DNA of 64,000 nt from a virus. Taxonomy: Duplodnaviria; Caudoviricetes. The stretch covers positions 32,001-96,000 of the IMG/VR virus record IMGVR_UViG_3300038673_000220; one strand, written 5' to 3'. This document shows, piece by piece, positions 11,222-47,541 of the stretch (within the stretch, counting starts at the first letter, position 1; each line of letters begins with the position of its first letter). Made by a program: the position numbers and the translations under genes. The notes under the pieces were generated by a model. That model was not told the DNA's origin. It was given only the letters and a program-made list of their open reading frames with translations, and ran no database searches.

Positions 11222-11244
11222 AAATATCCTTAAGGAGTTTATAC

Positions 11245-13452
11245 ATGACCGCTCTTAATAACTTTCAAGAGTTTATGGCTGGCCTTGAGTCCATGAATAT
11301 CGATGTTGATGGCGATAGCGTATCCATCTCTGATCAGCAAACCATCGACTCTGTTTTTGGTAATGTTAAGAATTTCATCACCTCTAACAACCTGGTTCAA
11401 CCTGATTACTTCCATTCTCTTGAATCCATCGAGACTCCGACCAGATCTCTGAACAAAGCTGTTGATGTAACCGGCGTTGGTATTGAACCATTGATCACCC
11501 TTTGTCAGAATTGTAACGTTCCGTCCAAGCATCTGAAAGCTGCTGTTGAGTCTGTAGCTCTGTGTATTCACAACTACTGTCAGAATTACAGTGCTAGCCA
11601 GCATTTTGCTAAAGGTTCTGCACCGTCTGGTAGCCATGGTGATTACGAGGTTCGTGGATTCGATGGTGTATTCTCTGACCGTATGAATGCCATGGTCAAA
11701 GGAGAGGCTGCAGCTTCTCTTGAGTCTTTTGGTGCCGATGTATCCAACGTTATCTCCGATGCTAAAGTAGCTGTCACTGTAACGATCCTTCGTTATCATC
11801 GTGGCGTTATCCATCGCCTGATTCCGAACATCCCGACTGATTCCGTAATGGTTTCCTACAAGGTTGACCATATGGAAGTATACGACTTGGCTAAATCTCG
11901 TAGTAATGATGCTGCTGAGCGTTATGATGGCCAACATCGTGTACCGTTTGTTGATCTGTATGGCGATCCCTCCCCAGCCAACACTCAGCTGAAACCGATC
12001 GTTCTTCGTACTTCCAACGATGCAACCGCACCGAATTCCAAGCTGCTTGCTGAGAATGTTGGTAAGATCAATACTTCGATCAACATGTTCGATTACTCGA
12101 TCGACGCCGGTGTAATCGGTTATACTCATATCGATTTCACTGATATCGTTGCTGACAACGTCCGTATCAAAGCGCTGTACTTCAACGTCACCGATGGTAC
12201 TTCCACTGAGCTTTTCCGTTTTGGTGTAAGTGAGTATGCTGGCGCTCGTATGTTGATGAATGCCAACAATCTTGATTCTGGCGATCGTACTTGTAACTTC
12301 AAGGATACCCTCGTCCTTGCCAACGATTCCAAAACTTCCAGCGATGTAGCATCCACCTTGCTTGCTGGTCTTACCGAAGATGCAGTTGTCAAATTGGTAA
12401 CCAATGCATCCGGTTCTGTTAATCTGAAAACTTCTGAGATCATCGTTCTTGGATCCACTGCTCCTGCAATCGGTACCGTTTCTGGTAATGCCGTCATTGC
12501 TGCTGATCAGGCGATCTTTGATGCTCTTACTTTCACCATCGTTGGTTTTGAGCCTGCTGCTGAGTTTTCCGAAGAGAACGTACGTAAGACTACTCGTGCA
12601 ATGCGAATCATGACTAAACAGGTTGGTTATGAGATCCCTGGTTCCCAGAACTTCGTTGTTCAGTACTCCCTTACTCAGACTCGTCCGGAAACTGTTATCG
12701 ATGGTCTTGCTAAGCTTATGGCTATTGGTAATGATGATCGTGGTATCAGACTTATCATGGATACCATGGGCAACGTCAAAGATCGTATCGTTGCTGAGTC
12801 CAAACTTAGTGATGCTAACTATGTAAATAAAGTTGGTCAGGCATTCGTCGCTGGCCAGCGTGTTAAACCGTCGATCTTCTTCCACACCATCACTCTTGAT
12901 GCTGATCTGAAGAATATACGTTCTGCTGATAAATGGGGTGATATCCGTGCATTGACTGAGGAGAATCTGCTGAACATCTTCTCTCGTCTGTATCGTGAAT
13001 CCTACTACTCTCAGGAACTGGGTGATGGTGAGAAACCGGTATTCAACTGCTTGACCTCCATCCCGATCAAGTCTTCTCTGCTTTCTGTACCGCATTATCA
13101 CAATCACCTTGCTGATTCTGCAGCTGACAAAGTAGCTGATGGCGTAATCGAGTTCCGTCGTACTCTTCCGGATGGTACTGTACTGAACGTAATCACCACT
13201 ACGTTCAATTACATGGATGACAAGATGCTGATCGTACCTGTACGTCCTTCTCGTCCTCAGTCCGTCCTGAACTTTGCTCAGAACCGTGAGCGTGGTCAGT
13301 TCCTTGCTCAAGCTACTCCGACTATCAACGATTCGATCTTCAACTCATTAATCGGCAACAGTAGGGAATTTCCCGTGGTCTTGTGCCCCGTGGGTGCACT
13401 TGTTCAGATCAGTGGCCTTCATGCTATCTTTGATACCTTTGGTGCTCTGTAA
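11245..13452 (+). CDS. Major capsid protein (phiKZ gp120-like)
   Basis: 735 aa; propeptide with GLE/SLE/SLE cleavage-type sites; strongest codon bias in the window; synteny; long hairpin follows. Confidence 0.85.
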   Translation: MTALNNFQEFMAGLESMNIDVDGDSVSISDQQTIDSVFGNVKNFITSNNLVQPDYFHSLESIETPTRSLNKAVDVTGVGIEPLITLCQNCNVPSKHLKAAVESVALCIHNYCQNYSASQHFAKGSAPSGSHGDYEVRGFDGVFSDRMNAMVKGEAAASLESFGADVSNVISDAKVAVTVTILRYHRGVIHRLIPNIPTDSVMVSYKVDHMEVYDLAKSRSNDAAERYDGQHRVPFVDLYGDPSPANTQLKPIVLRTSNDATAPNSKLLAENVGKINTSINMFDYSIDAGVIGYTHIDFTDIVADNVRIKALYFNVTDGTSTELFRFGVSEYAGARMLMNANNLDSGDRTCNFKDTLVLANDSKTSSDVASTLLAGLTEDAVVKLVTNASGSVNLKTSEIIVLGSTAPAIGTVSGNAVIAADQAIFDALTFTIVGFEPAAEFSEENVRKTTRAMRIMTKQVGYEIPGSQNFVVQYSLTQTRPETVIDGLAKLMAIGNDDRGIRLIMDTMGNVKDRIVAESKLSDANYVNKVGQAFVAGQRVKPSIFFHTITLDADLKNIRSADKWGDIRALTEENLLNIFSRLYRESYYSQELGDGEKPVFNCLTSIPIKSSLLSVPHYHNHLADSAADKVADGVIEFRRTLPDGTVLNVITTTFNYMDDKMLIVPVRPSRPQSVLNFAQNRERGQFLAQATPTINDSIFNSLIGNSREFPVVLCPVGALVQISGLHAIFDTFGAL

Positions 13453-13485: not shown

Positions 13486-13523
13486 ACCTTCTACCAGTAG
13501 CATAATAGCTACTGGTAGAAGGT
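13486..13523 (+). terminator. Terminator-like hairpin, 16-bp stem
   Basis: ACCTTCTACCAGTAGC-N6-GCTACTGGTAGAAGGT after the capsid gene. Confidence 0.8.
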
Positions 13524-13593
13524 ATTCCTATTTAGGCTTTTCAAGTGAAATATCGCTCAATTGGTAAATATAAAATATTAAAACAAGCTACAA

Positions 13594-13604
13594 ATATATA
13601 TTAT
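13594..13604 (+). promoter_or_regulatory. Phage promoter-like motif ATATATATTAT
   Basis: Exact motif upstream of ORF 13651. Confidence 0.65.
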
Positions 13605-13650: not shown

Positions 13651-13905
13651 ATGAAAGGTAGACGTAATCCGAACATTCGTTATGACAGCCCTATTCGTCG
13701 TTGGATTTCTGACAAATTACGTGAAAAAGGAATCAATGATCCTCTTCAATTCAGACAGTTGTGTTATGATTATTTTAAAGAGCATACTGATATTGATCAG
13801 AGTCGTTATATCAGTAAAGCTTCTGATTTGATGAAACCTATTTTAGGTCAATGTGTTCTTGGTAGAAAGACTGCTGGTATCATCATTGAGCATATATCAT
13901 ACTAA
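13651..13905 (+). CDS. Small hypothetical protein, C-terminus probably truncated by the IS insertion
   Basis: SD AAGGAG. A compatible tail (ISLGETHDWWKEPS*) lies right after the IS right end at 15289-15333. Confidence 0.7.
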   Translation: MKGRRNPNIRYDSPIRRWISDKLREKGINDPLQFRQLCYDYFKEHTDIDQSRYISKASDLMKPILGQCVLGRKTAGIIIEHISY

Positions 13906-15287
13906 GAAGATGACCCTTTCCTTTAGGTGAGGGGGTACTGAGAATCATAAATTATCCATACAGAACGCATAATCCAAAAGGATCAATCATGAACCTAACA
14001 GCTCAGGTAAAACTGGAGCCTGATGCTGATCAGGCTTTATCATTAACTCGAACCATGCAGCTCTTTAATGATGCTTGCAACTTTGTAGCTAAATTAGCTT
14101 TTAAGCGTAAAGTATACCATCCAGTAGCGTTGCACAATCTCAAGATCAGCGACAGCACACTTTATTACCATCTTAGAGCTACTTATCCAAAGCTCAATTC
14201 GATACAAATCGAACTGGTTTTTCGTAAGGTGGCTGATGCTTATAAAACACGCTTAAAACGCTTAAAGAAGAGGAAGAAGCTAAAGCATCCTTGCAGGTTC
14301 AAAGAGATGAGCAGCATTCCTTATAATCATCTTATCAGTAACTATAAGCTTATCGTAGCTTCGGCTGGAGATAGAGCAATCACTCCACACCTTTCAGTCG
14401 TTTTAGTTGACGATGCTCGATACAAACGTTCTAAGATCGATTACATCGTAGCTGATCATCAGCGTAAGATATTAGCTAACGCTGTTCCTGGAACGTTTGG
14501 CGGAGAATCGCGGATCTCATTCCGAAAAGGCGCTTTTTATATCAACATCCCAGTGGAGCAATGCGTTGCTCCAGAAGCTATCGATCCGATCAGATCGATT
14601 GGAGTGGATCTTGGAGTAGTGAATATCGCAACTACTTCGTATGGTAAGATCTTCAGTGGAGAGCTTATCGAAAATAAGCGGTTGAAGTTCCAGAAGCATC
14701 GATCTTCATTACAAAAGTGTGGATCGAAATCAGCTAAGCGTCGGTTGAAGTCAGTAGCTGGTAAAGAAGCACGTTTTCGCAAAGATCTCAATCATTGCAT
14801 CAGTAAAGAGCTCGTTGTTGCGGCTAAAGGCACAAGTTCACGGATCGTGTTGGAGGATCTCACCAACATCCGAGAACAGACAACGGTTAGGAAGCAGCAA
14901 CGAGCTCGTCATCATGGTTGGAGTTTTGCTCAATTACGTGAGTTCATCGGCTACAAAGCAGCTATGGCTCAAGTGGAAGTTAAGGTTGTGGATCCGAGCT
15001 ACACGAGCCAAAGATGCAATAACTGCGGAAGCATCAGTCGATCGAACCGAAGAAATCAGTTCCGATTCAGCTGCAAAAGTTGCGGTCATGATGCTCATGC
15101 AGATTACAACGCCGCTTGCAATCTAGCTTGGTTAGGAGATAATGGTGCTGAACGATTCGTTAAGGATGAGTTGATGCACTAAAGACTATGTTGGGGCTGT
15201 AACTGTCAACCAGCCTTATGTAGGGGTGCTATCGGAGCAATGATAGAGCTACTTACAAGCCTCTTCCTTTAGGTGGAGGTTGTTGAC
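13890..15287 (+). mobile_element. IS200/IS605-family element, TnpB only (IS1341-like)
   Basis: Left-end hairpin ACCCTTTCCTTTAGGTGAGGGGGT (13913-13936) and right end AAGCCTCTTCCTTTAGGTGGAGGTTGTTGAC ending 15287 share a TTCCTTTAGGTG core. No tnpA. Left boundary is inferred. Confidence 0.85.
13989..15182 (+). CDS. tnpB: RNA-guided endonuclease TnpB
   Basis: RuvC-I GVDLG, RuvC-II VLEDL, YTSQRC..C/C..C zinc finger and RuvC-III ADYNAACN; all catalytic acids present. Confidence 0.95.
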   Translation: MNLTAQVKLEPDADQALSLTRTMQLFNDACNFVAKLAFKRKVYHPVALHNLKISDSTLYYHLRATYPKLNSIQIELVFRKVADAYKTRLKRLKKRKKLKHPCRFKEMSSIPYNHLISNYKLIVASAGDRAITPHLSVVLVDDARYKRSKIDYIVADHQRKILANAVPGTFGGESRISFRKGAFYINIPVEQCVAPEAIDPIRSIGVDLGVVNIATTSYGKIFSGELIENKRLKFQKHRSSLQKCGSKSAKRRLKSVAGKEARFRKDLNHCISKELVVAAKGTSSRIVLEDLTNIREQTTVRKQQRARHHGWSFAQLREFIGYKAAMAQVEVKVVDPSYTSQRCNNCGSISRSNRRNQFRFSCKSCGHDAHADYNAACNLAWLGDNGAERFVKDELMH

Positions 15288-15307
15288 TATCAGTTTAGGT
15301 GAAACTC
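15183..15307 (+). ncRNA. TnpB omega/reRNA scaffold 3' part plus flanking guide
   Basis: GGGCTG...GTCAACCAGCC, TGTAG...TACAAGCC and right-end hairpin typical of IS605 right ends. Predicted guide TATCAGTTTAGGTGAAACTC (15288-15307). The 5' end probably overlaps tnpB. Confidence 0.7.
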
Positions 15308-15332
15308 ATGATTGGTGGAAAGAACCATCTTG

Positions 15333-15389
15333 ATATAAACAAGGAACGCTACCATCATTGGTAGCGTTCCTTGTTTATATTTATTTTTT
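15333..15389 (+). terminator. Intrinsic terminator, 21-bp stem
   Basis: ATATAAACAAGGAACGCTACC-N6-GGTAGCGTTCCTTGTTTATAT plus T tract. Confidence 0.9.
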
Positions 15390-15480: not shown

Positions 15481-15687
15481 ATGGATATAAAACAAGGTTT
15501 GGTTGTTGTTGGTATCGTCGTCGGTGTTTTAGGTTGTAGTGTTGGTCTTATCAAAAGACAAATAGTGATAAAAGAATTCAGTAAAATGAATTCTGATTAT
15601 TTGAAAGATCTTAGAGGTGAATTAACTTCTGAAAATCCTATTCAAGGTATCATTACTGGTATCTTGAAAAAGAGAGGTGAAAACTGA
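15481..15687 (+). CDS. Small membrane-anchored protein (paralogue 1)
   Basis: SD AAGGAG; N-terminal hydrophobic helix; ends ILKKRG. Confidence 0.75.
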   Translation: MDIKQGLVVVGIVVGVLGCSVGLIKRQIVIKEFSKMNSDYLKDLRGELTSENPIQGIITGILKKRGEN

Positions 15688-15920
15688 TGTCCATTCAAGC
15701 TGAATTAGTTGGTGCTGGAATCATTCTTGGATCAGCTCTTCTCTATATGGGTGGATCCAAGATCGTTGTAAAGAGATGCTCTGATGAAGAGCTTCGTCAG
15801 AAGTATTATAAGATGAAGGATCTTGCTGAGAAAGATCATAGGATCTTGAGGGTATTTCCTTTCAGAGTATCTTTTAACCAAATCATTGATGAAATCAAAA
15901 GGAGAGGATTAAATGGATAA
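15687..15920 (+). CDS. Small membrane-anchored protein (paralogue 2)
   Basis: TGATG coupling; N-terminal TM; ends EIKRRG. Confidence 0.75.
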   Translation: MSIQAELVGAGIILGSALLYMGGSKIVVKRCSDEELRQKYYKMKDLAEKDHRILRVFPFRVSFNQIIDEIKRRGLNG

Positions 15921-16278
15921 GTTGGCTTCTTTGTATTTGGCAGGTGCAACTGTAGCATTGGGAAGTTATGCATATTTCTTTATCAAAACCAAGAGGATGA
16001 ATAATCTTGAGTTGTGTGGTCGTTATATGAAAGTGGTAGAACGACTCAACAAAAGAGAATCATCTATCAGTCTTAAAGCTCAATACAGCATTCTTCGTAA
16101 TGAATGCATCAAACGTAATCTCATCGGAGGAGAAAATACTATGTCTATCGTAATCAATCAAGTCAATGATACCTTTAATCAATTAACCATCACTTGTAAC
16201 ATCTGTAGAAAGCTTCGGATCGTTAATCCGATCAAGATCGCTAGAGTGTTCAGTACAGTTAATGCATTTGTTCATTAA
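15913..16278 (+). CDS. Small membrane-anchored protein (paralogue 3) with possible internal start at 16141
   Basis: SD GAGGA; N-terminal TM; ECIKRN motif; internal GGAGG followed by in-frame ATG at 16141. Confidence 0.7.
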   Translation: MDKLASLYLAGATVALGSYAYFFIKTKRMNNLELCGRYMKVVERLNKRESSISLKAQYSILRNECIKRNLIGGENTMSIVINQVNDTFNQLTITCNICRKLRIVNPIKIARVFSTVNAFVH

Positions 16279-26500: not shown

Positions 26501-29500
26501 AGAAGTGGGATTAAGTGATGTTCCTAACCACGACTTCACTGCTGAAGTTGCTGCCAATACTGCAAAGGTTGGTATCACTCCTGAACAAGCTGCATCTATC
26601 GTTGATGCAAATACGCATATCGCAACTGTAACGGGTAATCCTCATGCAGTTACTAAAGCTGAAGTCGGTTTAGGTTTGGTTCCGAATCACGACTTCACCG
26701 ATGAGGTTAATGCTGCTACAACTCATATCGCAACTGTTACTGGTAATCCTCATCAAGTTACTAAAGCAGAGGTTGGTCTGAGTGAAGTACCTAACCACGA
26801 CTTCACAGCTGAAGTTGCTGCGAACACTGCAAAGGTTGGTATCACTCAGGAACAAGCTGATGCTATCGTAGCCAATACTGCAAAGGTTGGTATTACAGTT
26901 GAGCAAGCTGCTTCTATCGTAGCATCTGACGCTCATATCGCTACTGTTACCGGCAATCCTCATCAAGTTACTAAAGCAGAGGTTGGTCTGAGTGAAGTAC
27001 CGAATGTGGATTGTACGAATGCTTCGAATATCACTACTGGTACTCTACCAACAAGTGTTCTTCCTGCATTGGCTATCAGTGAAACCTACGTTGTTGCTGA
27101 TGAGACTGAACAGTTAGCCCTTACTGTACAGAAGGGTGATATCGCTGTTCGTTCTGACCTTAATCGCTCGTATATCAACTCCACTGGTGATAACACTGCG
27201 ATGACTGATTGGCAGGAGCTCTTAACTCCTACTGATACTATTCTCACAGTTAACGGCCAGGTTGGTACTGTAGTTCTTACTACTACGAATATCGAAGAGG
27301 GTACAAACCTCTATTACACTGAAGCACGTGTATCTGCAAATGCTGATGTTGCAGCAAATACTGCAAATCGTCATAATCATGCAAATAAAGCTATCCTTGA
27401 TGGTACTGAAGAATCCTTCACTACCGTTTTGAGAAACAACATCCTTACTAATAACGATAAGGTTGGTATCACCACTGAACAAGCTGATGCTATCGTAGCC
27501 AATACTGCAAAGGTTGGTATCACTGCTCAACAGGCTGCCGATATCGTTTCTAACAATACTCACCGTGCTATCGTAACTGGAAATCCGCATCAAGTCACCA
27601 AGACTGAAGTAGGATTAAGCGAAGTACCGAATCACGATTTCACTGCTGAAGTAAACGCCAATACTGCACATCGTGGTATTTTGGAAGGTAACCCGCATCA
27701 AGTTACTAAAGCTGAAGTTGGCTTAAGTGAAGTACCGAATCATGATTTCACTGCAGAAATGCTTATCGCATTAACTCACGTTGAAACAATTACCGGTAAT
27801 CCGCATCAAGTCACTAAAGCTGAAGTAGGTCTCGGTAGCGTTCCGAATCATGATTTCACTGCTGAAGTTGCAGCCAATACTGCTAAGGTTGGTATCACTC
27901 CTGAACAAGCTGCAGCTATCGTAGCCAATACTACTCATGCTGCCATTGTTGCTGGTAATCCTCATCATGTAACAAAAGCTGAAGTTGGTCTGAGTGAAGT
28001 ACCTAACGTCGACTGTACCAACGCCTCGAATATTACTACAGGAACTCTTCCTTCAAGTGTTCTTCCAGCTATCGCTATTACTGAAACTTTTGTAGTATCG
28101 AACGAGCTTGAGCAACTTTCTTTAGATGTTCAAGAAGGTGATATCGCTGTTCGTTCTGATCTTAATCGTACCTTTATCAATATCACTGGTACGAATAACG
28201 CTATGACTGATTGGCAAGAACTCGCTACTCCTACTGATACCATTTTGAGTGTTAATGGTCAGACTGGCACTGTAGTTCTTACCACGACGAATATTGACGA
28301 AGGTACTAACCTTTATTATACAGAAGCACGTGTATCTAACAACGTTGACGTTGCAGCAAATACTGCAAATCGCCATAACCATGCAAATAAAGCTATCCTT
28401 GATGCAACAACCGCCTCTTATACGACTGCGGATGTTGATACGTTAGCTGCTGCTGATGCTCATCGTTTAACAACCACTGGTAATCCGCATCAGGTCACTA
28501 AAGCTGAAGTTGGTTTGGGTAATGTACCTAACTTAGATTTCACTTTAGATATTGCTGCGTCGAATGCTCATATCGCAACTGTAACTGGTAATCCGCATCA
28601 GGTCACGAAAGCTGAAGTAGGATTGGGTCTTGTACCTAATCATGACTTTACAGCTGAAGTTGATGCGAATACTGCAAAGGTTGGCATCACTCCTGAACAA
28701 GCTGCTGCAATCGTAGCGAACAGCGCTAAAGTTGGTATCACTCCTGAGCAAGCTTCTGATATCACTTCTAATAATAATCATAGATTAACTGTTACTGGTA
28801 ATCCGCATAATGTAACAAAAGCTGAAGTTGGATTAGGCTCTGTACCTAACCATGACTTTACAGCCGAAGTTGCTGCGAATACTGCAAAGGTTGGTATCAC
28901 TACTCAGCAGGCTGCTGATATCATTTCTAATAATGAACATCGAGCCATCATTTCTGGTAATCCGCATCAAGTTACTAAGGCTGAAGTTGGGTTGAGCGAT
29001 GTTCCTAATCACGACTTCACAGCTGAAGTTAATGCGAATACAGCTCATACTGCTATCGTAGCTGGTAATCCGCATCAGGTAACGAAAGCTGAAGTTGGTC
29101 TTGGTAATGTACCTAATGTCGATTGCACCAACGCTAGCAATATCACCACTGGTACCTTACCTTCTTCAGTATTACCTCCATTAGCAATCACTGATACTTT
29201 TGTTGTTGCTGACGAAGCTGCTCAACTTGCATTGGTTGTTCAGAAAGGTGATGTTGCAGTACGTACTGATGAAGGTCGCTCGTATATCAACTCCACTGGT
29301 GATAACACTGCGATGACTGATTGGCAGGAGCTCTTAACTCCTACTGATACCATCTTGAGTGTTAATGGCCAAACTGGAACAGTTGTTTTAACTACGACAA
29401 ACGTTGCTGAAGGGACTAATCTCTATTATACTGAGGCTCGTGTATCTGCAAATGCTGACGTAACACTTAATACAGCTAATCGTCACAATCATACAAATAA

Positions 29501-43944: not shown

Positions 43945-45444
43945 ATGATCATTAACAATGAAGGACAGCAGGTAAACCAGCCGCAAACTGACGCAGCACC
44001 GAAAGCATTTTCTCTGAGAGATGTATTGCAGCGATGCAATTCTCAGAATGGTTGGTCTGGTGTCGGTCAAGATTACATCAATTCAATCCGTACTCAAATC
44101 GAGGATCCCGCAGCTACTATTAAGGGATCTATGCATCATATCAGCGATACAGCTGTAGCGTTTAATCATGAAGATAACGGTATCGTTCTTGTTCATGAAG
44201 GCGACATGATGAATTACCAGGAGCTTATCAATGAGGTTAAGCTCTACAACGCAAAACAGGCATATTACAGTGCTTTTCCGAAAAAGAAGCTGTTGAACAT
44301 CGTCACTGTTAATCGGTTCATGTTCAACCGACCGATTCAGATGGCCTCTTATATCAATAATCTGTTCTTGTCTCAGAGCGATATGATTAAGAGCTTCAAT
44401 TATCAATCTTTCGGATCTCAGAATAGTATTGATATCAACACTGATATCGGAGTTGTTCGTCGATTCTTCGAGATGCATTCGACGACTCCAGTATTCTGTG
44501 GAAACTTCGGATTCGTAGCATCTCTTGCGGATAAGAATTCCAACCGCAGTGCTGGTTATAATCAACCGACACCGATGTTTGGTGTTTCTGGTTATGTTGA
44601 GTTTATCAGGAATGATTCTGATGGAACATTCACTCCTATCGTTCATGTAACTGATATTCTTTCGGTTCTTCCTACCAATAAAATCTTGGCTCTTGCTTTA
44701 CCGCTCATCGGTGGAGTAATCATTTCTCGCAATATCTGGAAACAGCCATTCTCAGCGATTGCGAAAGATAACAATATCAATATTGGTAATCTCATCATCG
44801 ATGCCAATAGCGGTAAGCCTTATGAAGTGAAATCTGACGCTGATTTCCGTCAGATGTTCCGTCAGTATATCGGAGATCCGCTTCTTTGTATTGATATCAA
44901 ATCTGGCGGAGCTGATATTCCAGGCTTGAATCGTTTGATTCGTCAGTCTGAGCATATTGCTGTATTCAATGAGATCCTCGAGTTCTTCGGTGAGGCTCCT
45001 TTGAACGCTTGTCCGCCGATTGCTCAGAACATCTTCCGAGAAATCATCGGTGCTTCTGATATCGCCAAGAACAATATGGTAGAACCCATTGACAGTCGTG
45101 ATATCAATTACCTCTACACGGTTGCAAAAGCCAAATACAACCCTCGTCTGGATTATCTCTTGGCTCGTAATGAGTATGATCCGGTTCGACGATTCGAGGC
45201 TATCAAAGAGATTTATGGTGACATCACACCTACTCACATCTCTGCAACTACCATGTTCCACAACGACTTCCTTGGTCGTATCGTCAACAGACTGAATGAA
45301 ACGATCAAAATCGATATCCCGAATGTTGGTGATACGATGATGATCAATATGAATGAGTTTGCATCTAAGGCGTATAAACCGAATATGCCTATGTTTGGTC
45401 AAGGACAGAGCTCATTCAATATCGGTGGTTGGTCCTCTTTCTAA
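43945..45444 (+). CDS. chmA: Chimallin (phage nuclear shell protein) candidate
   Basis: Immediately upstream of the nvRNAP beta' gene as phiKZ gp54-gp55; two promoter motifs; high-expression codon bias; Q-rich N-tail; F.P.V.VTDI...LALAL...W...F...NIG.L pattern. Mostly synteny-based. Confidence 0.6.
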   Translation: MIINNEGQQVNQPQTDAAPKAFSLRDVLQRCNSQNGWSGVGQDYINSIRTQIEDPAATIKGSMHHISDTAVAFNHEDNGIVLVHEGDMMNYQELINEVKLYNAKQAYYSAFPKKKLLNIVTVNRFMFNRPIQMASYINNLFLSQSDMIKSFNYQSFGSQNSIDINTDIGVVRRFFEMHSTTPVFCGNFGFVASLADKNSNRSAGYNQPTPMFGVSGYVEFIRNDSDGTFTPIVHVTDILSVLPTNKILALALPLIGGVIISRNIWKQPFSAIAKDNNINIGNLIIDANSGKPYEVKSDADFRQMFRQYIGDPLLCIDIKSGGADIPGLNRLIRQSEHIAVFNEILEFFGEAPLNACPPIAQNIFREIIGASDIAKNNMVEPIDSRDINYLYTVAKAKYNPRLDYLLARNEYDPVRRFEAIKEIYGDITPTHISATTMFHNDFLGRIVNRLNETIKIDIPNVGDTMMINMNEFASKAYKPNMPMFGQGQSSFNIGGWSSF

Positions 45445-45685: not shown

Positions 45686-47072
45686 ATGCAGAAATGTTTT
45701 GTATTACCGAGTATCATTAACTTAGATGATCTCTTTAGTCGGACACCAAATACAACGGTGTTTAATGAGATCATGCTTGAATGTCAATCAAGCGAAGTTG
45801 TTGATATACTTTGTGATATTTCCAATGATAAAACTGATTCAGTAGCCTCATGTGAATGCGGTTGCCTTAAAGGAAATTATTACACTGGAACGAAATGTCG
45901 GGTATGTAATACTGTTTGCGAATCGAATCTCTTTGGTGAGATACGGAATGATTCGTGGTTAGCTATACCAAACTCTATCAAAGGAGTTTTGAATCCACAA
46001 GTTTTCAGAATCTTGGAAAGCTGGATGGGAAATACTACAGGTCATCAACCTATCATACGACAAATCCTCGATATGCAATTACCAGTAGAACCTATACCGA
46101 ATACGCCATTTTATTCTGGTATGGGATTTAATTGGTTTTATGATAATTTCAACGCTGTTATAACGTACTTTTTGACAAGCCATCCAACAGATACTGGTAG
46201 AAAAGCTGCTCCGAGTATAGAGCTCTTTCTGAAACAAGCTGGAGAAGCTATCTGGTGTCATTATTTACCAATATTAAGTAAGATCATCCAACCTATTACT
46301 CGTGTGAATAAAGATGTTCGTTATGCTGATACGGACATCAAGAATCTCATGAAGTCGATATTCACTTTAAGGAGCATCCTTTTAGCTGAAAAGACCATGA
46401 AGTTTTCTTATGATCACATCGATCGAAACTTCTTCAATGTGTATATTGAGTTCATCAATTACACGAAAAATATCTTGTATTCGAAGCTGCCAAGAAAACA
46501 GAGCATACTGAGGAAACATGTCTTTGGATCACGATCGCATTGTTCAGGACGAACTGTTGCGATCCCAATCGTTGAACCTCATGAGTCAGATAATATCCAT
46601 CTTCCTTGGCGATTAGGATTGATGATGTATCGTTATCACGTATTGGCAGTTTTGGTCAAGAAGTTTAGAATACCACCACTTAAAGCGTTTAATCGTGTTG
46701 TCAATGCTATCAACGTGTACGATTATGAGATCGATCGTATTATGCAGGAGTTGATCGCTGATTGTCCGTATAAAGGATTCCCTCTACTTGTGAATCGAAA
46801 TCCGTCATTGAAAATAGCGAGTATCCAATTATTATTCGCAACGAAGATCAAACCTGCATTAACTGAGAATCCGGTCAATTTACCAAATATTGAAGATATT
46901 AATGTCTCAGTGTTTGATCAGGATGATGAAGGATTCAGTAAGAGCTCATCGATCTTGGACATCAATGATGAAGATCAAATCGATCCAAAACTGAAGTATC
47001 TATTACGAAGCTATGTTGAAGATGATACAATAGCTGTTTCACCACTGATCGTTAAAGGTCCCAATCTTGACT
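45686..47072 (+). CDS. Non-virion RNA polymerase beta'-like subunit (phiKZ gp55-like), exon 1
   Basis: CECG...C..C zinc finger, RKHVFGSR, NRNPSL; ends GPNLD at the catalytic loop. Confidence 0.9.
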
Positions 47073-47541
47073 TAACACATAAGGTCCGCTATGAAGTAAT
47101 TCATAGATGAAAATCTCTCTAATTGCTGGAACCTACTAAAGCTGTCTCACTACAACGTGACTCGAAAGGGTGAGCGTGAATGTTTGAAAACGAGACGGAT
47201 ATATGGGGAACCGTGGATTCTAAGAATCCCTTTAGCAGCCAAGATCCTAAAGTTATTGGGTATTGATTAATTGAATGAAGATACTCAGGTGGATTAGTTA
47301 ACCAATAAATAAGGATAAGGTCCAACGACTATGTGATTAATGGGTAATTCAATAACAATGTATCTATGGGTTATTGAGTCTACATACGCGCCATTAAGTA
47401 TACAGTACTTACCAAGTGGGTAGGGAAATGGGAGACTGCCTCAGGAGATGAGGTAGAAGAGATAGTCTGGACATCTAGGGAAAACCTAGAGCTGCAGGTA
47501 ATGCTGCGGGGATCAACTAACGACTGATCCTGAACATAACG
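47073..47541 (+). ncRNA. Group I intron (IA-like), 469 nt, no internal sense ORF
   Basis: P1 GACU/GGUC with U-G at the 5' splice site; P AATTGCTGGAA, Q AGCAGCCAAG, R CAACGACTA, S AAGAGATAGTCT; terminal G 47541. Splicing restores NLDFDGDE. Confidence 0.92.

Follow-up and report, generated by a model that had tools for sequence, protein, structure and literature searches.

A TnpB-only IS200/IS605-type element with a predicted ATAT target motif in a phage encoding a chimallin-fold protein

How did a tnpB gene without a transposase gene come to interrupt a small gene of a large phage, and what might its product cut? This question is raised by a locus in a 64,000-nt stretch of viral DNA (Duplodnaviria, Caudoviricetes), hereafter the window, which covers positions 32001-96000 of the 149 kb IMG/VR virus record IMGVR_UViG_3300038673_000220. 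Coordinates refer to the window unless the whole record (G000) is named. Judged from sequence, the locus carries a complete, recently mobile, TnpB-only (IS1341-type) element of the IS200/IS605 family, and we place the probability of this reading at about 0.75. That the element is intact, with the right end and guide given below, is close to certain. The IS200/IS605 family is known, and the element itself is a textbook-conforming addition to it. Its span and its gene are as follows.

13896-15287, plus strand: TnpB-only IS200/IS605-type element (1392 bp, best span)
13989-15182, plus strand: tnpB (397 aa; Pfam OrfB_IS605, PF01385, and Cas12f1-like TNB, PF07282)

The boundaries were determined largely from a second copy. 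A search of the record itself recovered a 100% identical tnpB at G000 27475-28665, 18.5 kb upstream and outside the window, and the two loci matched over exactly 1396/1396 bp (window 13892-15287) and were unrelated beyond. Both copies end in GGTTGTTGAC, followed by TATCAGTTTAGG here and by CATTTAGTTGAT at the other copy. As the copies diverge directly after this point, and the guide/cleavage-site rule described below agrees, the right boundary (15287) and the adjoining guide are fixed; both had been correctly placed by the initial annotation of this DNA, which was made from the sequence alone. That annotation had set the left boundary at 13889/13890, whereas identity between the copies begins only at 13892, with ATATATCATAC; the preceding bases are ATCATTGAGC in this copy and AAATTCAGAT in the other. 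The earlier left boundary was thus off by 6 nt (8 nt in an alternative register considered below). In this family the target, and with it the transposon-associated motif (TAM), is common to all copies and must therefore sit at the start of the identical block.

Comparison of the flanks of both copies (GAGCATAT / TATCAG here, CAGATATAT / CATTTAG at the other copy) revealed no terminal inverted repeats and no target-site duplication. The subterminal imperfect palindromes at the left (IPL, 13914-13933) and right (IPR, 15260-15279) resemble each other and are found on the same strand. Both copies are oriented as the surrounding genes and each lies just 5' of a hairpin; the other copy starts 14 nt past the stop of a 257-aa gene (G000 26590-27363, or L001 616-1389; weak zinc-finger match, phrog_9929, E 7e-4), ahead of its hairpin. 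A GC content of 43.5%, compared with 35.4% in the genome, identifies the element as foreign. Given that identical copies occupy different sites, both obeying the target rule, a Y1 transposase appears to have acted recently on this phage DNA.

The target rule was derived from IS608, in which the left guide (GL) AAAG reads the left cleavage site (CL) TTAC and the right guide (GR) GAAT reads the right cleavage site (CR) TCAA (PMC5934647). IS608 is cut 19 nt upstream of its left hairpin and 10 nt downstream of its right one (PMC3201880). A single rule fits both pairs, namely C = comp(G2) comp(G1) N comp(G4), where comp denotes the complement. When tested on IMG/VR relatives of this TnpB (80 loci, L004-L083, 35-41% identity), the rule held in about 50. 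At left ends, 12 loci had the predicted site at a distance of 18-19 nt from the hairpin foot and 17 had it at 16-20 nt, against a baseline of about 0.6 loci expected per offset and a flat profile for the control rule. Guide and target covaried at this end (GAAG/TCxC, GAAT/TCxA, GAAA or GAGA/TCxT, AGAG/CTxC and GGGG/CCxC). At right ends, a predicted site was present in 37 loci, with cleavage exactly 8 nt past the foot and with the pairs CAAG/TGAC, AAAG/TTAC and CAAA/TGAT. Independent copy pairs among the relatives (L024/L027/L029 and L013/L041) agreed with the boundaries placed by the rule. The control, a naive parallel-complement pairing rule, was rejected on account of this flat profile.

The right hairpin of the present element is preceded by CAAG and followed by TTGT-TGAC, an exact match to the rule at 8 nt. 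At the left end, the relevant features are these.

13910-13913, plus strand: left-end guide GL, ATGA
13914-13933, plus strand: left palindrome, CCCTTTCC-TTTA-GGTGAGGG
13892-13895, plus strand: ATAT, left cleavage/target site and predicted TAM, the first 4 nt of the block common to the copies

GL ATGA predicts ATxT, and ATAT is found 18 nt upstream of the hairpin foot. ATAT is very probably the TAM, whichever of the two registers discussed below applies. Two other candidate targets, TCAT (13897-13900) and CTAA, were discarded; they need either a guide detached from the hairpin foot or spacings (2-13 nt) unseen in the relatives.

The right end is also predicted to encode the guide RNA of TnpB. 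Aligning 34 elements, the present one among them, over the 200 nt that precede the right end gave the following consensus fold for the omega-RNA, or right-end element RNA (reRNA).

15193-15287, plus strand: omega-RNA scaffold, from the consensus fold of relatives
15195-99/15211-15: helix 1
15220-24/15252-56: helix 2
15260-67/15272-79: right imperfect palindrome
15256-59: GR, CAAG
15284-87: CR, TGAC
15205-10 (loop GTCAAC) with 15282-87 (3' end, GTTGAC): pseudoknot

Standard pairs filled 92.7% of cells across the 34 elements, compared to 28-49% in slid controls, and compensatory changes occurred in 20/23 pairs (covariation score 0.60 vs about 0.1). The pseudoknot switches from C-G to A-U together with the change of TGAC to TTAC, and its paired hexamers in the relatives (L004-L083) were GTCAAC/GTTGAC, GTAAAC/GTTTAC and ATCAAC/GTTGAT. 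As far as such covariation can be read, the last six bases of the element are under a dual constraint, serving the transposase as DNA (right cleavage site) and the guide RNA as RNA. Support for the omega-RNA comes from covariation and not from folding energy, the single-sequence fold of the right end being unexceptional (z = -1.0). Rfam returned no family for the right end, giving chance matches on the terminator hairpin and a sub-threshold HEARO match on the wrong strand.

In the protein itself, the RuvC D-E-D triad and the CxxC...CxxC zinc finger are intact and align with solved Cas12f/TnpB chains, the nearest of which are Cas12f-type (8J12, E 1.6e-27; TnpB-like chains, E about 1e-7). In an alignment with the 15 nearest relatives (proteins P0004-P0018, 48-68% identical), D207, E289, D372, C343, C362 and C365 were invariant and C346 nearly so, in agreement with the intact catalytic residues reported initially. 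These relatives were found in ENA/Logan assemblies only. Several lie on 80-245 kb contigs and one on 21 contigs, and they may represent a TnpB clade resident in large phages.

The element lies in the 3' end of a small gene, ORF (open reading frame) 13651, within a unit bounded by two terminators.

13651-13905, plus strand: ORF 13651, interrupted allele (84 aa, ending GIIIEHISY; AAGGAG ribosome-binding site upstream)
15288-15333, plus strand: displaced 3' end of ORF 13651, reading (I)ISLGETHDWWKEPS and a stop with the 13895 junction
15288-15307, plus strand: guide-matching flank, TATCAGTTTAGGTGAAACTC, the first 16 nt being the likely guide
15333-15380, plus strand: intrinsic terminator of the unit (20-bp stem, then a T run)
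13486-13523 and 15333-15380: terminators bounding the unit, both strong

Between the terminators the order is promoter-like motif, ORF 13651 and the 397-aa tnpB ORF. The last residues of ORF 13651 (ISY) and its stop come from element DNA. Joining 13895 to 15288 restores GAG CAT AT/T ATC AGT, giving the empty site GAGCATAT/TATCAG and a 96-aa ORF that ends in GIIIEHIISLGETHDWWKEPS (alias EHIISLGETHDWWKEPS). Its TGA (15331-15333) touches the 20-bp stem, so that the stop does abut the terminator as first annotated. An in-frame fusion alone is weak evidence, one of three frames being open (chance about 1 in 3), and it would count for little were it not that stop codons of this phage usually adjoin their terminators. 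Across the 31 terminators of the whole record, stop codons were usually 0-6 nt from the stem foot (median about 6 nt), the distance being ≤6 nt in 15/31 and ≥33 nt in only 3/31. From these considerations, 13895/13896 is probably the exact junction.

The guide predicted from the right flank is TATCAGTTTAGGTGAA(ACTC), and no other 12-nt match to the guide of either copy occurred in the genome. In the occupied allele TGAC precedes the guide match, which therefore lacks a TAM there.

A protein search returned a single homologue of ORF 13651, P0001, which is encoded on a 7.4-kb Logan contig, is 98% identical and ends EYISY before its stop. Homologues naturally ending EHISY had initially been named as evidence against an insertion, and P0001 alone is, formally, of this kind. 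ISY and the stop are nevertheless element DNA and recur in a non-coding context at the other copy, so P0001 probably has the insertion as well; most likely it carries the same one, or else it lies on a contig broken in the repeat.

The initial annotation also regarded the phage as nucleus-forming, which was borne out by a structure match to the following protein.

43945-45444, plus strand: chimallin-fold protein (499 aa), context for a nucleus-forming phage
45686-47110: phiKZ-type RNA polymerase beta subunit (phrog_2987), the next gene after the chimallin-fold gene

At the sequence level this protein matched no chimallin in PDB, Pfam, PHROGs or GenBank phages. It has 326 homologues in a representative library, mostly of 500-600 aa, which suggests a large divergent chimallin clade. 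An AlphaFold2 model built on 49 homologues (pLDDT 85.7, pTM 0.83) had as its top nine PDB matches the chimallins of Goslar, 201phi2-1 and PhiPA3 (7SQV, 7SQS, 8FNE; E 4e-17 to 2e-13, TM 0.59-0.65); no other match fell below E 0.01. The ESM Atlas offered only a poor model, and the fold was resolved solely by the model based on a multiple sequence alignment. Tubulin (PF00091, PhuZ type) had no match in the partial record. The modelled fold supports the premise that the phage forms a nucleus, and since the phage encodes such a shell, a TnpB acting on phage DNA would need to enter the phage nucleus.

Expression of the element may depend on a promoter-like motif, A[AGT]ATATATATCAT, with eight native copies, all on the plus strand.

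G000 567, 9140 and 12102, and window 3863, 6389, 43668, 56455 and 59217, plus strand: native motif copies
13592-13604, plus strand: motif copy before ORF 13651 (12/13 match, 46 nt before the ATG)

Of the eight native copies, seven precede a ribosome-binding site and start codon by 29-50 nt; the remaining one is located 269 nt ahead of the chimallin-fold gene. The motif resembles the AT-rich early promoters of phiKZ. The copy at 13592-13604 is a probable promoter of the unit that now holds the element. The TAM and the first left-end bases always form ATATATCAT, which has 9/11 core bases of the motif, and expression of the element by the phage's own polymerases is plausible on this basis. A further, perfect instance of the motif, the ninth, arises where the other TnpB copy joins its left flank.

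We propose that insertion took place 3' of an ATAT, within codon 82 of the small orphan gene ORF 13651, and exchanged the last 15 codons of that gene for three element codons. The element would then be transcribed with ORF 13651, and perhaps also from the promoter-like ATATATCAT. TnpB would bind the omega-RNA with its 3' extension TATCAGTTTAGGTGAA, and the complex would cut sibling genomes that keep ATAT directly before the guide sequence, that is, the empty site. Repair from an occupied genome would copy the element in (homing or retention), and the occupied allele, with TGAC in place of the TAM, would be immune. A move to a new site would need Y1 TnpA in trans, and this enzyme, like TnpB, would require access to DNA within the phage nucleus. 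By analogy with related systems, we put the chance that TnpB is active and homing in nature a little under even.

Several results weigh against the complete and recently mobile element that we favour. The initial annotation had reported no tnpA, and a search for the Y1 transposase (PF01797) likewise found no match in the 149-kb record, six control genomes being positive; that record is, however, only about 54% complete. Looking for other copies of the element, as had been suggested alongside the search for tnpA, did recover the second copy within the record, while scans for further copies with TnpB peptides in GTDB genomes and IMG/VR were empty and the right-end 25-mer was not found in JGI metagenomes or GTDB genomes. 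No empty allele, the other check suggested initially, was found among 5.8 billion protein clusters, in IMG/VR or in JGI metagenomes, whether by an exact scan for the right flank (IMG/VR) or by a search for left- and right-flank junctions with a 0-14 nt gap (IMG/VR and JGI metagenomes). The junction is therefore deduced, not observed. GL ATGA also makes the left end atypical, since guides of the form xAAx or GAxx and targets of the form TCAx are the rule in nearly all relatives. Lastly, moving the left junction by two nucleotides, as considered below, would make the empty site of the other copy read TTCAGATATATATCATTT, 18 nt of which are identical to the chimallin-gene motif.

These results bear most directly on a rival explanation, in which a transposase-less TnpB sits idle behind the protein shell and the two copies record a recent duplication before decay. 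The missing tnpA in 149 kb, the absence of empty alleles, and so of any visible polymorphism driving homing, and the occurrence of the element nowhere else all fit this explanation, and TnpB-only elements are commonly non-autonomous (PMC13565253). Against it, the ORF is intact with all catalytic and zinc-binding residues kept, both ends and four omega-RNA helices match the family consensus, and the copies show no difference over 1396 bp despite lying at different sites that obey the rule. We consider an idle, decaying passenger unlikely, although it is a serious competitor. A Y1 TnpA acting in trans, from the rest of the phage or from the host, may supply mobility, which is compatible with the partial record. 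The IS1341 subgroup is itself defined by elements that carry no tnpA.

A second alternative concerns only the register of the left end. It is possible because the identical block opens ATATAT, so that ATxT fits twice; the flank would then end at 13897 and the element would start with CATAC at 13898, behind ATAT at 13894-13897. ATxT fits here at a spacing of 16 nt, as in relative L062, but this spacing is rarer than 18-19 nt. The empty site of the other copy would contain a perfect canonical A[AGT]ATATATATCAT, as known from the eight native sites, while the first register gives a 2-nt-shorter variant, AGATATATCAT, found nowhere else in the genome. Conversely, two extra common bases (AT) would have to precede ATAT by chance at both sites; just 7.8% of ATAT sites have an AT in this position, a point in favour of the first register. 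The intact ORF would have 85 aa, ending EHILSV with its TAG at 15296-15298, and would not be fused to the stop abutting the terminator; its own stop would lie 35 nt before the terminator, an atypical distance in this phage, and the open 15-codon frame up to the terminator would be a coincidence. On balance the second register is improbable. Under either register the guide match of the empty site has ATAT immediately before it, and the functional prediction is thus independent of the choice between them.

The remaining alternative, the junction initially annotated (element 13890-15287, TAM (A)TTGA, empty site ATCATTGA/TATCAG, ORF ending GIIIDISLGETHDWWKEPS and a stop), is in frame, and its TTGA recalls the TTGAT of ISDra2, but it is almost certainly wrong, being contradicted by left flanks that differ between the copies before 13892 (GC at 13890-13891 is not shared and the flank of the other copy, TTCAGAT, has no TTGA), by a GL that predicts ATxT and not TTGA, and by a hairpin spacing of 24 nt, outside the 16-20 nt peak of the relatives. 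Deleting 13890-15287 does yield the stated ORF end when computed, and the broader claims of a reconstructable empty site and of an element in the 3' end of ORF 13651 survive; only the exact junction and its TAM have to be replaced, by 13895/13896 and ATAT in our preferred register.

With these ends, the element closely resembles IS608 of Helicobacter pylori, which moves by Y1 TnpA 'peel and paste'. In both, each end carries a subterminal imperfect hairpin, the two being directly oriented, and a 4-nt guide immediately upstream of the hairpin reads the cleavage site by the same pairing rule; neither element has inverted repeats or a target duplication. The left site, outside the element, lies at 18 nt here and at 19 nt in IS608; for the right site, which is internal, the distances are 8 nt and 10 nt, respectively. 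The element differs from IS608 in having no tnpA, in its ATAT target (TTAC in IS608) and in residing in a jumbo phage instead of a bacterial chromosome. The layout of ISDra2 TnpB from Deinococcus radiodurans is likewise shared: besides tnpB there is an RNA scaffold that overlaps the right end, the guide comes from the flanking DNA, the TAM equals the transposase target, and the RuvC D-E-D triad and zinc finger are present. The guide RNA of ISDra2 reportedly also contains a pseudoknot. Sequence similarity to ISDra2 is distant only, the TAM differs (ATAT vs TTGAT), and about 85 nt of the scaffold here lie past the stop codon and not within the ORF.

Homing has been discussed for comparable elements. 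Members of the IS1341 group are likewise TnpB-only, and the spread proposed for them, by cutting the element-free allele, may by analogy apply here. The 'non-restorative homing' by which transposons enter co-infecting phages or plasmids has been reviewed (PMC13565253). In PhiPA3, an intron-encoded homing endonuclease acts against PhiKZ; this enzyme and PicA-dependent import are precedents for selective entry into the phage nucleus, a process under current study with both (PMC12908238). Selective nuclear import decides the effect of that enzyme, likewise a selfish nuclease of a nucleus-forming phage; it is protein-guided and intron-borne, whereas the TnpB described here is RNA-guided and transposon-borne. 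Unlike the PhiPA3 enzyme, TnpB would have its guide RNA arise inside the nucleus and its protein outside.

Both TAM and guide follow directly from the DNA sequence, which provides a compact predicted RNA-guided nuclease with an unusual all-A/T TAM (ATAT), and the identical copies indicate that single-strand transposition acted on a shell-enclosed phage genome. The locus gains interest from its chimallin-encoding host, from a TAM that overlaps the phage's promoter core, and from the implication that transposase and nuclease have access to DNA within the shell. An imported and active TnpB would offer a natural, programmable means of probing import into the phage nucleus and the way in which co-infecting jumbo phages compete; an inactive one would be a further stranded TnpB element.

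A bolder, joint reading of these features is doubtful. It holds that this TnpB lineage may have shifted from the TCAC/TCAT of its relatives to ATAT, the core of the phage promoter motif, and that the left-end bases ATCAT might then rebuild a promoter core at every insertion, from which phage RNA polymerases would express the element. The omega-RNA would be made in the phage nucleus and met there by imported TnpB, and the result could be a gene drive, or a weapon against element-free sibling phages in the same nucleus. Were this joint reading true, TnpB would be the first RNA-guided nuclease known to pass the chimallin shell.

The wider surroundings of the locus include the following gene.

11245-13452: PhiKZ-type major capsid protein (Pfam PF25620, PhiKZ_MCP), the gene directly upstream

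No close DNA relative of the phage was found among GenBank phages, and identity at the protein level was only 27-45%. One relative chosen by its major capsid protein (L003, 60% identity) showed no downstream synteny with this phage and is therefore uninformative on the insertion site. A 690-aa open frame runs antisense to the capsid gene (window 11239-13311, minus strand) and is most likely a by-product of codon usage rather than a gene. The packing of genes against terminators in this phage is unusually tight. Directly past the terminator of the unit, at 15481-16278, lie three tandem small ORFs (68, 77 and 121 aa) with similar hydrophobic N-termini, which may form a set of small membrane-protein paralogues.

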